In this document: one piece after another, positions 57,221 through 60,892 of the stretch | Numbering within the stretch: the first letter of the stretch is position 1 | Layout of the letters: every line of letters begins with the position of its first letter | NCBI GenBank assembly: GCA_965279515.1 | Contig: CBDIID010000003.1 | Coordinates: 2,528,001-2,592,000 of the forward strand | From: Turneriella sp. | Lineage (GTDB): Bacteria; Spirochaetota; Leptospiria; Turneriellales; Turneriellaceae | Length of the DNA: 64,000 bases | Direction of reading: 5' to 3' | Translations under genes and position numbers: made by a program | The notes under the pieces: model-generated | What the model was told of the DNA's origin: nothing | Databases searched by the model: none | The model's input: the letters and a program-made list of their open reading frames with translations, nothing else

Positions 57221-58122
57221 GTGCGCACCACGAATGGCATTCAACTTACCTTTTTCACAATCCTGCTTTTTTTGCTGCCGCAGGTGCTATTGGTAGCCCC
57301 CCCGAGACTCACTTTTTATCGATGATGCTGTTCGCGGAAATCGTGGGCTTTTTCGTGGTTGCGCGCATCTTCTTGCACAAGCGCTTCTTGCCTTTTTGTC
57401 GATTCCCCCTGCGAACGCGAAGTTACGCTGGACCCTCGTTGCATTGCCGCTTTTGGCGCATTTTGCAGACCAGTATTATTATCGGGTGCTGGGTGGCGCC
57501 GCGATTTTCGGCAAACCTAAATGGATTGTGCCGGGAGATTATCTCATGCCACCGCTGGTCATCGTTACCATATTCTTCATTTTAACGATCAATTCATTCT
57601 TTAAAGCGGTATCGTCTGCAGAAAGACTTTTGGCAGCCGAAAACGCGGCTTCTGAAAAACTGCTACTCAACATTTTGCCGGAGAGTATCGCACGCGAACT
57701 CGAAAAGCTCAAGACCATCGGCGACAGCTATATGTTCGCAGGGGGTATTCCGGAAAAAAACCGCACGCATGCCGTCGACTGCGTCATGGCGGCGCTCGAG
57801 GTCCAGTCGTTTATGAATCAGATGAAAGACATCAAGAGCGGCCAGAACCTACCCTACTGGCAGCTGCGCCTCGGCATCCATTCGGGCGATCTCGTCGCAG
57901 GCGTCATCGGCGATAAGAAATTCGCGTACGACGTTTGGAGCGACACCGTGAACACGGCAAGCCGCTGCGAATCGTCGGGAGTTCCAGGCCAAACACAAGG
58001 GTGAGATCGAAATGTATTTCGTGCGCGGCCTCAGGCCCGAATTACAGCGGGACAACCAGCCGCGCGTTCCGAATGAGAAATTTAAGGCACTTTACACCGC
58101 TCTAAGCGCTGCGTCAGCCTAA
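57221..58122 (+). pseudogene. Class III adenylate/guanylate cyclase pseudogene
   Basis: SEKLLLNILPESIARE is joined directly to LEKLKTIGDSYM, so the first catalytic segment is missing. After SGVPG the frame shifts into AKHKGEIEMYFV. The TM region is spread over several frames. Confidence 0.85.
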
Positions 58123-58992
58123 CGTCTTCAGGTACTGGAAGAGCGCCTTAATTTCGGTATCGGTCATCTTGCTGAGGTTTCTCCAAGGCATGATGGCATT
58201 GATCTCTGAACCATTGGGCCGTTTACCGGTGCGCAACGCGGTGATAAACTGCTCTTCATTGTAACCTTTAAGGCCCGCGTTGGTGATGTTCGACGCTGGC
58301 GGCCACTCAGGCGGGGCACCCTGAATCGGCCCGCCGGTGAGCTGGTAGTTATGGCAACCCGTACACGTCTGAGCAATGTATTTTCCGTACTCGACCGTCA
58401 GACCGGGTTTGACTTCGCTCACCGGCTCGGCGTTGTGGTCGATCTTTTCCGCAGAAATGAAGACAGGTATCTTACCTAAAAAATACAAAATTCTGCCGAC
58501 GGGGCCGGCGCGTAAGGCCGGCGGCGTATTGTCAACAGCGGGTACCGTGCGCATGTAGGCGATGATACGGCCGACATCCTGATTGCTCATGCCCTGAAAA
58601 TCTGTGGCAGGCATCAACAGTAGCGCACGGCCGTCTTTACCGACGCCATGGCGGATCGCCTTTTCCAGGTCGAGATCGTTGCGCGACGCGAGCACTCCGC
58701 CCTTGCCCGTTGTCAGGTTTGAGCCCGTGAACTTGCCAATCGCCGGGTCGTCGATGAAGGTTTTTCCGGCCTGATTCTCGCCATGGCAATCGCCACAACC
58801 GCGCGAAATATAGAGCCGTTTACCCTCAGCAATATCCGCTGCCGCAGTGTAGACAGGCACGGGATGATCTTTGACCTGGAAGGTCTGTGCCATACGCCTC
58901 GAGGTAATAAAATAAACAATGCCGATAAAGAGTGCGATGAGGCCAAGCAGTACACCAAGACCTTTGGCGAGGCGTTTGAAGATTTTTTTCAT
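58114..58992 (-). CDS. Membrane-anchored diheme cytochrome c
   Basis: CGDCH and CTGCH with distal MP motifs; N-terminal TM; 4-bp overlap with the carF-like gene. Confidence 0.9.
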   Translation of the reverse strand: MKKIFKRLAKGLGVLLGLIALFIGIVYFITSRRMAQTFQVKDHPVPVYTAAADIAEGKRLYISRGCGDCHGENQAGKTFIDDPAIGKFTGSNLTTGKGGVLASRNDLDLEKAIRHGVGKDGRALLLMPATDFQGMSNQDVGRIIAYMRTVPAVDNTPPALRAGPVGRILYFLGKIPVFISAEKIDHNAEPVSEVKPGLTVEYGKYIAQTCTGCHNYQLTGGPIQGAPPEWPPASNITNAGLKGYNEEQFITALRTGKRPNGSEINAIMPWRNLSKMTDTEIKALFQYLKTLG

Positions 58993-59693
58993 GCGACGCG
59001 ACGCTTCAGGAATGTCTTAAGCCTTGTAAAGAACTGCAGGTGCCGTAAGGGTGCGTTGAGCCAACCTCCCGTTATACAGTAGTGCTGGTCATGCGGCGCC
59101 GTATGGTGCACGGCGTGGTTTTCAGGAGAGAGGATAATCCGCCATTTCTGCAACGCGCGGACAAACTCAGGTGGGCGGTCGGTGTGCGCCCACTTGTGGA
59201 TCTGGTTTGTGAAAAAAATCGCTGTCAGAAAGAACCATGTCCAGACACCGATAAAAAAACCCATTTCGCCATGGGCAAAGAGCAACACGCAGGAAACAAA
59301 CGGAAGCGAGATGAGACAGTTGGCACCATTGGTTTCGAGATAGCTGTGCCGTGTGATCGCCTTCGCATCCACATGGTGCTCGCGGAACGGGAAAATAAAC
59401 ACACGGCCCAGGACCGGCGTATCGGGGTTACCGAAATTGTCAGCGAGAAAGTGCACGAGGCCCGAAACAAAATCGGCGGATAGAAGAGCGGCGACAATCA
59501 GCAGCAACAGGAGCCATCCCACCGCATCATAACTCACCCAAATCTGCGGCAGCTGCCCCCAAAGCGAAATCATGAGAACCGTCATGGCCGAGACAAATGC
59601 TGTAAGGCTCAGGAAGTCCAAAAGCGCATGCCAGCCACTGTAGACTTCGGGCCGGGCGGGTGCATGGTGCACATGGGTTATGCTCGATTTCAT
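58989..59693 (-). CDS. carF: CarF/TMEM189 (plasmanylethanolamine desaturase/FAD4) family lipid desaturase
   Basis: DFVSGLVHFLADNFG, FREHHVDAKAITRH, ETNGANC, TNQIHKWAH and HAVHHTAPHDQHYCITGGWLN. Confidence 0.88.
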   Translation of the reverse strand: MKSSITHVHHAPARPEVYSGWHALLDFLSLTAFVSAMTVLMISLWGQLPQIWVSYDAVGWLLLLLIVAALLSADFVSGLVHFLADNFGNPDTPVLGRVFIFPFREHHVDAKAITRHSYLETNGANCLISLPFVSCVLLFAHGEMGFFIGVWTWFFLTAIFFTNQIHKWAHTDRPPEFVRALQKWRIILSPENHAVHHTAPHDQHYCITGGWLNAPLRHLQFFTRLKTFLKRRVA

Positions 59694-59701
59694 GGCAGCT
59701 T

Positions 59702-59730
59702 TCTTACGAGTAGGCCTGCGATTTGGATTT
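59702..59730 (-). promoter_or_regulatory. ECF sigma promoter driving carF and the cytochrome c gene
   Basis: AAATCC (59730-59725), 16 nt, then CGTAAGA (59708-59702). Confidence 0.75.
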
Positions 59731-59750
59731 ATTTTTACTGTGAAAAAAAT

Positions 59751-59776
59751 AAATCCATTGCAGGGCCAGCCTCGTA
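59751..59776 (+). promoter_or_regulatory. ECF sigma autoregulatory promoter
   Basis: AAATCC (59751-59756), 16 nt, then CGTA (59773-59776); mirror image of the minus-strand promoter. Confidence 0.75.
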
Positions 59777-59801
59777 CTGATTATGGTCGCCCACAACGGC
59801 C

Positions 59802-60380
59802 ATGCGCGACGTGCCAGACAAAGAACTCATACGCCGGGTCAGGGAAAGGGACAAGGCCGCGTTTGAGGAACTCTATAACCGGCACGCTCCACCCGTGCTG
59901 GGCCTCGCCACGCGTATGTTACGCGAAGGTGCGGCGGCCGAGGATGCCTTGCAGGATACATTTCTCATTCTCTGGAATAAGACCGCGCTCTACAGCGATC
60001 GCCGCGGCGCGCTGCTCAGCTGGCTCTTCGCGGTCTGCCGCAACATCTGCCTCGACCGCCTCAAACGCCCGGGGCAAAAACGCGAGGTCTCGGTGTCTGA
60101 TACGGTTTTGGCCGGGTTCAACAAATCGGGGTGGGATTACCACCAGGGCGAAACCAGTTATGCCGAGGTGCATGCCATGGTCACCGGCGCGCTCACAAAA
60201 CTCTCAGCGCATGAACGTGAGATTGTGGAACTCGCTTTTTTCTCCGGCCTCAGCCATTCGGAGATCGCAGCGCAACGCGCGATGCCTTTGGGTTCAGTCA
60301 AAAGCCTCATCAGCGCCGCGCTAAAAAAGCTGCGCGGCGAGATCCGGGAAAACTGGCAATATGACGGAAGTATGGACTAG
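59802..60380 (+). CDS. ECF RNA polymerase sigma factor
   Basis: AAFEELYNRH..AEDALQDTF..SWLFAVCRNICLDRLKR; region 4 GLSHSEIA..PLGSVKS. Confidence 0.93.
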   Translation: MRDVPDKELIRRVRERDKAAFEELYNRHAPPVLGLATRMLREGAAAEDALQDTFLILWNKTALYSDRRGALLSWLFAVCRNICLDRLKRPGQKREVSVSDTVLAGFNKSGWDYHQGETSYAEVHAMVTGALTKLSAHEREIVELAFFSGLSHSEIAAQRAMPLGSVKSLISAALKKLRGEIRENWQYDGSMD

Positions 60381-60382
60381 AT

Positions 60383-60892
60383 ATGAAAAAATGGCAAACG
60401 CAAACCTTCGATCAAATTGCGACTGGTAAGAAAAGAAGCACGGTAGCAGAACTGCTTCCTGCCCGGCGTAAATTCGCCGATGACGTCGAGCAGCTCTCAC
60501 AGCTACTCGCCCACACACCTAAAAAGATAAAACCCGATACATCAGTCAAAGACCGCCTGATGGCGCGACTCGACGCAAAAGCCCCTGCAAGCGATGCCTT
60601 CGTTATCGCTGAGGCCGACCGCCAATGGAAAACCGTCTTCCCCGGCGTCAAAGAGTGTGCTTTGTCAGAGGGCGATGGCAGGCTTTCACGCCTGCTGAAA
60701 ATCCGCAAGGGATTTATCCTGCCCCCGCATAAACACCGCGAGATCGAGCAGGCCTTCATTCTCGAAGGTCGCTGCTACTCCGGCAAAGTACTGCTGCAAA
60801 AGGGCGATTATTTTTTTGCGCATGCGGATACGAAGCATGCGCGCGTCAAAGCGCTCGAAGATTGCCTGATTCTGCTGGTGGCGCACCGCTGA
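60383..60892 (+). CDS. Putative anti-sigma factor with ChrR-like cupin domain
   Basis: PxxSVKDRLMARL anti-sigma helix; cupin LPPHKHREIEQAFILEG..GDY..H. Confidence 0.78.
   Translation: MKKWQTQTFDQIATGKKRSTVAELLPARRKFADDVEQLSQLLAHTPKKIKPDTSVKDRLMARLDAKAPASDAFVIAEADRQWKTVFPGVKECALSEGDGRLSRLLKIRKGFILPPHKHREIEQAFILEGRCYSGKVLLQKGDYFFAHADTKHARVKALEDCLILLVAHR

Follow-up and report, generated by a model that had tools for sequence, protein, structure and literature searches.

A divergent locus in a free-living spirochaete of the Turneriella-type genus of Leptospirales appears, on balance, to encode an autoregulated switch, made of an ECF sigma factor and a soluble cupin anti-sigma factor, with a small membrane-lipid regulon in which the desaturase gene carF2 is an inducible output. 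The locus lies in a window of 64,000 nucleotides, the whole stretch of DNA that was analysed, from the genome designated G000. We read carF2 as output rather than sensor because it is the sigma-linked paralog and carries the promoter motif, because the second copy, carF1, lacks it, because motif and sigma factor are lost together, and because a third predicted target shares the motif.

The divergent locus, its promoters and its distribution

Two genes occupy the minus strand. The gene carF2 (58989..59693; 234 aa; PF10520, E=1e-51) encodes a CarF/PEDS1-type membrane diiron desaturase, and its 3' end overlaps by 4 nt the start of the second gene of the operon, which encodes a diheme cytochrome c (58114..58992; 292 aa; PF00034 profile match). 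Back to back with them on the plus strand lie genes for an ECF sigma factor of the ECF11/18/19 neighbourhood (59802..60380; 192 aa) and for a soluble anti-sigma factor with a ChrR-type cupin (60383..60892; 169 aa; PF12973, E=6.5e-13). All four open reading frames are uninterrupted, and a separate DNA contig covers the whole block without differences in two of three runs, which may be the source sample. One run, guessed to be RNA, gave a single 187-nt contig inside the cytochrome gene, a result given no weight here.

Each arm carries the same putative ECF-type promoter, as the first-pass annotation had described, here of the form TAAATCC-N16-CGTA: one for carF2-cytochrome (59705..59731, minus strand) and a putatively autoregulatory one for sigma-cupin (59750..59776, plus strand). 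Their upstream halves, consisting of the A-tract and -35 element of each promoter, form a perfect 13-nt inverted repeat (59724..59757, on neither strand in particular). The carF2 motif ends 11 nt before the carF ATG, and the carF2-cytochrome transcript is predicted to be nearly leaderless. The exact pattern occurs five times in the 4.9-Mb genome, twice within the 108-bp sigma/carF gap, where the genome-wide rate gives an expectation of about 1e-4 per site for a pattern that was chosen post hoc. Both arms also carry the motif in G001, G004, G006 and metagenome contig L030, despite differing spacer sequences, and it lies 5' of the sigma gene in all five sigma-bearing genomes of the genus. A first matrix, built from 10 sites of relatives with the sites of G000 left out, ranks the sigma (31.5), pdhC (28.9) and carF (27.6) sites of G000 first to third genome-wide, with the next site at 24.8; with a later matrix, three sites in the genome score at least 25 vs none in a reversed control, training having been on related sites. 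The motif precedes 4/4 sigma-linked carF copies (scores 23-31) and none of the 18 remaining carF genes examined (scores of at most 8). Its -35 element matches five of the six bases of the ECF11 consensus, TGATCC-N16-CGTA (PMC5507510), with A for G, and the N16 spacer and CGTA -10 element match exactly. A scan for sigma-70 promoters and terminators gave no signal above shuffled sequences. With the motif kept on both arms, lost along with the sigma factor, and ECF11-like, induction of carF and the cytochrome gene by the sigma factor, as first proposed, is very likely.

The sigma/cupin pair is present in 5 of 14 genomes of the genus, several of which are incomplete MAGs (77-99%), and in four of these five carF adjoins the pair under the motif. 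The linkage is not unique to this genome, whereas uniqueness would have counted against the first-pass reading. The full four-gene block belongs to one subclade, comprising two of the 14 genomes (G000 and G001) plus metagenome contigs. A synteny search for carF, ECF, cupin and cytochrome c thus finds the arrangement recurring within the genus and none outside it: in the best 80 of at least 572 confirmed GTDB carF loci, scanned with 4-kb flanks (some shorter), ECF and cupin profiles match in two, both Turneriella-type. Among 25 metagenome carF loci, a sigma gene is near two and a cupin gene near one, all Turneriella-type. A relaxed form of the motif precedes carF in 5 of the 80 best GTDB loci; one is the known locus, and the four others are scattered and were taken as chance. 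Five Leptospira genomes have a related sigma/cupin pair to which carF is not adjacent; there the motif stands ahead of the cupin gene and of a lipoprotein gene downstream. Of 37 pattern matches in three Leptospira genomes, the 30 examined lie mostly inside open reading frames, and the only conserved intergenic ones are at the sigma/cupin locus.

The sigma factor and its soluble anti-sigma factor

The best profiles for the sigma factor are PRK12519 (129 bits) and SigK (113 bits), all matches being below cut-off, and its best PDB match is R. sphaeroides SigE (E=2e-22), followed by SigK (E=6e-19). Between ECF11 and ECF19, the NCBIfam and PDB matches point both ways. Beyond the genus, the nearest relatives share about 40% identity and carry names that include Chloroflexi and Actinobacteria.

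The anti-sigma factor has no hydrophobic segment and combines a helical, zinc-less N-terminal domain with a ChrR-type cupin. The cupin ligands H116/H118/E122/H152 align with ChrR H141/H143/E147/H177 and do not vary among the 11 sequences aligned; without E147 and H177, ChrR does not respond properly to singlet oxygen or t-BOOH, and its cupin thus serves more than the peroxide response (PMC6852236). A fold search returns ChrR (2Q1Z) as best match. The ChrR zinc ligands His6/His31/Cys35/Cys38 have no counterpart, as no HxxxCxxC occurs in the 11 aligned rows; the protein of the window has no cysteine before residue 92, and the cupin has three invariant cysteines, C92, C131 and C161. The score against TIGR02451 is 41 bits (cut-off 124.5). 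We call the protein ChrR-like rather than ChrR because the cupin metal site is kept and the zinc anti-sigma site is absent; the earlier label of ChrR-type cupin holds for metal site and fold and fails for the zinc ligands. A model of the sigma/anti-sigma complex, in which binding is through anti-sigma residues 1-63, scored 0.78 vs 0.00 for the best control, although the like complex 2Q1Z is solved and the model may owe its score to that known structure. At least 78% of contacts recur between runs, partner pLDDT is at least 78, and the mark used is reached by 116 of 157 solved pairs and 2 of 215 mismatched pairs.

The system most resembles sigmaE-ChrR of R. sphaeroides (ECF11), the best PDB match for both proteins. 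Shared features are the cupin ligands, a soluble anti-sigma factor encoded at +1, a near-equal promoter (here AATCC-N16-CGTA vs TGATCC-N16-CGTA) and, as predicted here, autoregulation and an enzyme for an oxidant-labile lipid in the regulon. However, sigma inhibition by ChrR requires the zinc site, which is missing here; descriptions of ECF11 come from Alpha- and Gammaproteobacteria, whereas the present host is a spirochaete; and the core genes for photolyase, cfaS, amine oxidase and DUF1365 lack the motif here, the lipid gene being carF. Subgroup ECF19s19, a SigK-like sigma factor with a soluble ChrR-cupin anti-sigma factor, is alike in anti-sigma type, in the rank of SigK among the NCBIfam profiles and in a promoter pattern (ATC / CG) that fits, a likeness by description and not by group HMMs. 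ECF19 differs in that Spirochaetes are not listed and no carF context is described, and the accessible portions of PMC7826278 name no studied member of ECF19s19.

CarF2, the cytochrome and a third predicted target

CarF2 is identical to M. xanthus CarF (L188) at 97 of 224 aligned residues. Its histidines H78/103/104/113/164/168/191/194/195 align with M. xanthus H81/106/107/116/166/170/193/196/197, the essential CarF/PEDS1 set as given in PMC9131029; H183, H190 and H218 are not kept in this alignment. H113, aligned to H116, is the ninth histidine, which separates PEDS1 from FAD4. The retention of His boxes noted at first sight extends to all nine catalytic positions. The Asp and Phe on which activity depends (D100 and F118 in mouse) correspond to D85 and F103, which are unchanged in all 23 rows and keep the same spacing to the ninth histidine. 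Length falls within the range of the PF10520 family (150-350 aa), and the score against the equivalog NF045946 is 199.5 bits, below its cut-off of 500. The predicted structure is all-helical (pLDDT 91); a fold search with it gave no match at E<=0.001, the best being Scs7p hydroxylase.

The first-pass annotation overlooked a duplication. CarF2 is a genus-specific paralog (monophyly only 89 SH-aLRT in a quick tree), and the same genome has carF1 without the motif. In two sigma-lacking genomes carF2 is without the motif: G007 retains carF2-cytochrome, and in G005 a deletion of about 45 codons has also shifted the reading frame of carF2. Sigma-bearing G011 lacks carF2. M. xanthus shares a CarF with the nine essential histidines, D85 and F103, and an AGPS homolog; there, however, carF is unlinked, not light-dependent (PMC8156234) and acts upstream, whereas carF2 is a predicted sigma target, and the anti-sigma factor CarR is a membrane protein, whereas here it is a soluble cupin. 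The CarF of Leptospira, a PEDS1 validated by complementation (PMC9131029), is 45-54% identical, with the same histidines, AGPS and no apparent FAR; it differs in being single-copy with no adjoining sigma factor.

The cytochrome has two CxxCH motifs (C66-H70, C210-H214) and a single hydrophobic segment (7-33). Distant PDB matches are cytochrome subunits of flavoprotein dehydrogenases (7W2J_C, E=1e-11; 8HDD_B, E=5e-11). Where one N-terminal segment anchors a protein, hemes attached in the c-type manner lie on the periplasmic side, and this membrane-anchored cytochrome is probably periplasmic. The CarF histidines are all cytoplasmic (PMC8156234). Being on the opposite side from this active site, the cytochrome is unlikely to be a direct redox partner. 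Of the 10 genomes of the genus with this cytochrome, four have it next to carF, representing two distinct lineages (G000/G001 and G005/G007), and synteny relics remain in G002 and G009; in the other six it lies apart from carF and without the motif. G004 has carF2 and no cytochrome match, and only two of the 80 top-ranked GTDB carF loci, from at least 572 confirmed, have the cytochrome close by. The earlier idea of a dedicated redox partner is weak on both counts, membrane face and neighbourhood. In plasmid contexts of the cytochrome, one annotated locus has a divergent cupin-domain gene and no desaturase, and another record is unannotated.

A third motif-bearing unit, likewise overlooked at first, lies elsewhere in the genome and encodes PdhC, a lipoprotein esterase and a 7TM adenylate cyclase. 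The motif precedes pdhC in 4/5 sigma-bearing vs 0/7 sigma-lacking genomes (Fisher p=0.010, uncorrected for kinship). In the fifth, G004, the esterase-cyclase pair is relocated 10 nt behind the anti-sigma gene, and the esterase lies behind a motif in 5/5 sigma-bearing vs 0/3 scorable sigma-lacking genomes. In a PdhC tree, which leaves out G003 (split gene) and G008 and G010 (no pdhC match), sigma-bearing genomes stand in four separate places, three with sigma-lacking sisters. The P. syringae ECF11 regulon also includes an esterase (PMC5507510). The idea that this sigma factor controls a classical singlet-oxygen regulon was rejected: the genome has the photolyase gene and a furan-type cluster (cyclopropane synthase, amine oxidase, DUF1365), and the motif scores less than 0 at the head of each, and the SOUL gene and AGPS also lack the motif. 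Phytoene synthase was not found by a search whose control matched in 8 of 14 genomes. An AGPS homolog (E=2e-90 to 2UUU) is present in all 14 genus genomes. For fatty acyl-CoA reductase, PF07993 gave weak SDR-like matches only, so that de novo synthesis of plasmalogen cannot be taken as established, the situation also in Leptospira (PMC9131029). An O-methyltransferase gene carries the motif in G001 and has no tblastn match in G000.

The proposed switch and competing explanations

In the switch we propose, the N-terminal helices of the anti-sigma factor would hold the sigma factor, as the complex model suggests, and the metal-binding cupin, by homology with ChrR, would read membrane oxidation (singlet oxygen or an organic or lipid hydroperoxide) and free it. 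Singlet oxygen is, by analogy, a plausible signal. The sigma factor would then transcribe three units from the conserved A-tract-AATCC-N16-CGTA: its own operon, carF2-cytochrome c and pdhC-esterase-cyclase. CarF2 may desaturate ether lipids made via the genus-wide alkylglycerone-phosphate synthase and so refill vinyl-ether lipid spent by oxidation, and the esterase may trim damaged lipid. CarF would be a sigma output, the reverse of Myxococcus, filling the oxidant-labile-lipid slot that furan fatty acid genes hold in Rhodobacter, and the cytochrome a co-regulated periplasmic electron carrier, not the direct donor to CarF. CarF, AGPS and an ECF/cupin pair would thereby gain their first predicted role in Leptospirales, with a range of one genus; we found no description of a singlet-oxygen response in that order, a review of which mentions neither singlet oxygen, ECF, cupin nor plasmalogen. 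A zinc-less soluble anti-sigma factor isolates the contribution of the cupin, and what the ChrR cupin senses is called open (PMC6852236). Myxococcus plasmalogens are assigned to signalling; a stress-inducible PEDS1 paralog, with no phytoene synthase found, would offer the cleanest genetic test of their debated antioxidant role, and the system may allow testing whether vinyl-ether lipids protect or act as alarms.

The first-pass annotation read the locus as a candidate hybrid of the Myxococcus and Rhodobacter sensing systems. As a main reading this gives way before G011, the motif-less carF1, the five Leptospira pairs without adjoining carF, and the contrast of membrane CarR with a soluble cupin. 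Unlikely is a lipid second-messenger loop, in which singlet oxygen cleaves a carF1/carF2 vinyl-ether lipid, the aldehyde or lyso-lipid product binds or modifies the cupin (or sets off its proteolysis) and frees the sigma factor, carF2 re-arms the sensor and the esterase returns it to rest. In Rhodobacter, ChrR turnover requires furan fatty acid genes that the sigma factor regulates, and a lipid second messenger has been proposed (PMC6852236), and plasmalogen is required in Myxococcus to inactivate CarR (PMC9131029); here the directly attackable zinc site is missing and the three cupin cysteines are invariant. All ten genomes seen with such a sigma/cupin pair encode some CarF, but this says little because CarF is common whatever the sigma status (in 11 of the 13 remaining genomes of the genus and in all 7 of family f8), and G011, the Leptospira pairs and the solubility of the anti-sigma factor speak against the loop. 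Slightly less likely, in its specific form, is a vinyl-ether lipid as singlet-oxygen trigger whose cleavage product, a fatty aldehyde or lyso-lipid, is the cupin ligand, the freed sigma factor making carF2 to re-arm the sensor, a clearing esterase and fresh lipoyl-bearing PdhC in place of the damaged copy. If true, the plasmalogen signal of Myxococcus and the cupin switch of Rhodobacter would meet in a third architecture, one that provides a soluble, tractable receptor for a plasmalogen-derived messenger; the relay from plasmalogen cleavage to sigma factor is called open in PMC9131029.

Leptospirales grow on long-chain fatty acids, which would suit a cupin that senses, in place of an oxidant, a metal or a lipid substrate (for instance fatty alcohols or ether lipids of external origin) and controls a lipid-use or membrane-remodelling module. 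The regulon holds lipid and central-metabolism genes only, with photolyase and the furan-type cluster outside it; AGPS without a clear reductase implies a need for exogenous alcohols or ether lipids; and both the distance to out-of-genus relatives and the lack of a studied ECF19s19 member, in the portions cited above, leave room for such a signal. Yet the studied neighbours in ECF11, ECF18 (LitS) and ECF19 (LitS, SigK) mostly answer light or redox stress, and the oxidant-sensing ligands of ChrR are invariant, so that we hold a non-oxidative signal to be decidedly unlikely. Very improbable is a cytochrome that serves CarF2 as dedicated donor in place of cytochrome b5, or works with it as plasmalogenase or quencher: mammalian PEDS1 relies on cytochrome b5, and mitochondrial cytochrome c is capable of breaking vinyl ethers (PMC9131029), and the 4-nt overlap, the two lineages and the relics favour a tie, but the opposed membrane faces, the six genomes with a separate motif-less cytochrome gene, G004 and the sparse GTDB adjacency oppose it. 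That the genes are chance neighbours, the motif being the sigma factor's own promoter plus a mirrored accident, would suit the restriction of the four-gene block to two genomes and metagenome contigs; it is scarcely credible, since five divergent spacers retain the motif on the carF side and none of the 18 other sequences preceding carF has it.

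The four-gene block and its distribution

The carF/sigma block comprises four uninterrupted open reading frames in a genome of 4.9 Mb assembled in 3 contigs. On the minus strand, carF2 (58989-59693; PF10520, E=1e-51) overlaps by 4 nt a gene for a diheme cytochrome c (58114-58992; PF00034). On the plus strand, a gene for an ECF sigma factor with Pfam sigma regions 2 and 4 (59802-60380) is followed by one for a cupin protein, the putative anti-sigma factor (60383-60892; PF12973). The first-pass annotation had described this block and had placed the same ECF-type promoter on both arms; both points are borne out, as the reading frames are intact with matching Pfam domains and the motif TAAATCC-N16-CGTA is found on each strand of the 108-bp carF/sigma gap. 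By pattern search, the gap holds two of the five copies in the genome, and the upstream halves of the two facing motifs form a perfect 13-nt inverted repeat.

An out-of-frame ORF of 27 codons (59783-59866) overlaps the sigma start, its ATG lying 6 nt past the CGTA of the sigma promoter. The position of this ATG is kept in G001, a genome of the same genus, and in metagenome contig L030; in another, G006, the ATG is in frame and lengthens sigma by 21 residues, which together with its conserved position suggests a leaderless sigma start. Convergent with the cytochrome gene is a short adenylate/guanylate cyclase ORF (57396-58004) that looks internally deleted or decayed, since its domain match begins at profile position 49. 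At 62620-63421 lies a second ECF sigma gene, then a small cysteine-containing ORF without a Pfam match that is probably a zinc-finger anti-sigma.

Of 41 relatives searched, five carry the sigma factor (E of 1e-20 or less), all within the genus, and the cupin occurs in the same 5 of 14 genus genomes. carF2 is divergent from sigma in three of them (the window's genome, G001 and G004), whereas in G006 a single ORF separates the two; in G011, no carF was found within the 17 kb examined around sigma, and the only copy is the paralog carF1. The full block is present in two of the 14 genomes and in L030, while metagenome contig L029 ends ahead of the cupin gene. The cytochrome is encoded in 10 of the 14, adjoining carF in four. 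Among the best 80 carF loci of GTDB, ECF and cupin profiles match two, each Turneriella-type and already counted. The synteny of carF, ECF, cupin and cytochrome c genes thus recurs within the genus, and none was found beyond it in these loci.

Among 300 other genomes of the phylum, five encode a relative of this sigma together with a zinc-less cupin (E of 1e-28 or less); all five belong to one Leptospira-type genus and have carF elsewhere. The motif lies ahead of the cupin gene in at least two of the five and ahead of a downstream lipoprotein gene in all five, there in the form AATCC-N16-CGTA (loci L203-L207; genomes G249, G154, G034, G036 and G039). The gene ahead of the pair is, we presume, glutamate-racemase-like.

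Sigma factor, anti-sigma and CarF

The best solved relatives of the sigma/cupin pair are R. sphaeroides SigE and ChrR. SigK is among the top NCBIfam profiles for the sigma. Beyond the genus, its nearest relatives share about 40% identity with it, and some of them bear Chloroflexi or Actinobacteria names; its close clade includes a Turneriella-named member. In the ECF classification (PMC7826278), soluble ChrR-cupin anti-sigmas are given for ECF11 as well as for ECF19s19, which leaves the group of this sigma between the two. The ChrR-cupin identity first proposed holds for the cupin domain, where H116, H118, E122 and H152 line up with the ChrR ligands H141, H143, E147 and H177; it fails at the N-terminus, where comparison with ChrR finds no zinc site. 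According to PMC6852236, ChrR needs E147 and H177 to respond to singlet oxygen or t-BOOH, and its N-terminal zinc to inhibit sigma. In a model of the complex, residues 1-63 of the anti-sigma sit on sigma regions 2 and 4, with a score of 0.78 vs 0.00 for the best control, contact agreement of at least 78% and partner pLDDT of at least 78, a mark passed by 116 of 157 solved pairs and 2 of 215 mismatched pairs. Since a like complex is already solved, the model would indicate likeness only.

Aligned to M. xanthus CarF (281 residues, 12 His; locus L188), CarF2 keeps nine histidines (78, 103, 104, 113, 164, 168, 191, 194 and 195) and lacks three (183, 190 and 218). This agrees with PMC9131029, in which nine histidines are essential and three dispensable; among those kept is the H113 equivalent, said there to set PEDS1 apart from plant FAD4. 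The earlier claim that the His boxes are kept is thereby upheld. Against the NCBIfam equivalog, CarF2 scores 199.5, short of the cut-off of 500. The named records most similar to the CarF of this genome bear Turneriella, Spirochaetota or Leptospiraceae titles; with the Turneriella-named member of the sigma clade, they suggest that the genus is Turneriella-type. A quick tree of 52 rows splits the CarFs of the genus into two clades, carF1 (support 99; second copy of the window's genome, C3:2702595) and carF2 (support 89), the latter with the sigma-linked copies and the one in G007. All 14 genus genomes encode an AGPS homolog (E=2e-90 to 2UUU); a search of the window's genome found no clear fatty acyl reductase, and the same gap is reported for Leptospira. 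Leptospirales with the full pathway may be named in the supplementary tables of bioRxiv 10.1101/2025.10.10.681575.

carF1 (C3:2702566-2705046, L026) is convergent with a gene for a 582-residue PF03417 acyltransferase/hydrolase, and most genomes of the genus share this layout. Three of them have a distant third match to CarF at 25-26% identity (G006:C276, G007:C4 and G008:C15). By alignment or tree placement, CarF homologs with the ninth-His position also occur in L031, L032, L037, L144 and L167, low-GC or Patescibacteria-titled records beyond the range stated in reviews.

Motif sites and co-loss

With a matrix trained without sites from the window's genome, the top three sites genome-wide were those of sigma, pdhC (C3:4261361) and carF2. 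A later matrix, which includes those sites, scored three sites at 25 or more vs none in the reversed genome, and 12 vs 2 at 20 or more. The motif is upstream of all four sigma-linked carF copies, whereas the 18 upstream regions of other carF copies lack it. Ahead of pdhC it occurs in four of five sigma-bearing vs none of seven sigma-lacking genomes, a count covering the 12 of 14 genomes with a pdhC match. This third site heads an operon (C3:4256947-4261393; L200, L088) in which two further genes come after pdhC, with overlaps of 4 nt: one for a predicted lipoprotein esterase (PF20434, GHSAG), the other for a 7TM-DISM adenylate cyclase. Closer to the pdhC start lies a TTGAC element that is conserved whether or not a genome has sigma.

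In G004, pdhC lacks the motif and the esterase-cyclase pair lies instead 10 nt behind the anti-sigma gene, so that the esterase stands behind the motif in 5/5 sigma-bearing and 0/3 scorable sigma-lacking genomes (that of G008, at a contig edge, was unscored). Sigma-bearing genomes occupy four places of the PdhC tree (11 rows), three with sigma-lacking sisters, which argues, for one marker and incomplete MAGs, against a single inheritance of the pattern. Sigma-lacking G007 and G005 have the carF2-cytochrome pair without the motif, and carF2 of G005 has lost about 45 codons in a deletion that shifts its reading frame. For ECF11, PMC5507510 gives a tested consensus of TGATCC-N16-CGTA and a regulon that also has an esterase. 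A strong motif copy upstream of an O-methyltransferase gene is seen in G001 only (C344:1728, L086); that gene has no tblastn match in the window's genome.

Proposed mechanism and alternatives

We favor, with moderate confidence, a circuit in which the cupin would sense membrane oxidation and release sigma, which would then transcribe carF2, the cytochrome gene, the esterase operon and its own operon, CarF2 replacing an oxidant-labile vinyl-ether lipid. What is established directly here is the anatomy, the conserved residues, and the conservation of the motif and its co-loss with sigma; binding, transcription, signal and enzyme activity are inferred. A lipid second-messenger loop is possible, if unlikely, and a non-oxidative signal, lipid or metal, is improbable. 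The first-pass annotation had offered a dedicated cytochrome as redox partner or quencher. The redox-partner reading is weak and quite improbable, because the CarF histidines are described as cytoplasmic (PMC8156234) and a c-type cytochrome behind a single N-terminal anchor should have its hemes in the periplasm. That the genes are chance neighbors is scarcely credible.

The favored circuit would work like R. sphaeroides sigmaE-ChrR, but fails its zinc-site and core-regulon features; it uses a CarF, as Myxococcus does, but with the order inverted, carF there being described as unlinked and not light-dependent (PMC8156234). A full-text literature search, with subscription journals largely outside its reach, found no description of a sigma-controlled carF in titles or abstracts.

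Besides a photolyase gene, the window's genome has a cluster with genes for cyclopropane synthase, a MerR regulator, amine oxidase and DUF1365, and its photolyase, cyclopropane-synthase, amine-oxidase and DUF1365 genes resemble the Rhodobacter core regulon. Motif scoring found no site at the photolyase gene or the cluster, which counts against a singlet-oxygen label for this sigma. No phytoene synthase was found in a search of the genome. The cluster (C3:1402021-1409924, L199), with two cyclopropane-synthase-type methyltransferases and an MFS transporter, is divergent from a SOUL heme-binding gene and is similar to clusters for furan fatty acids or light stress; lacking the motif, it may be MerR-controlled.
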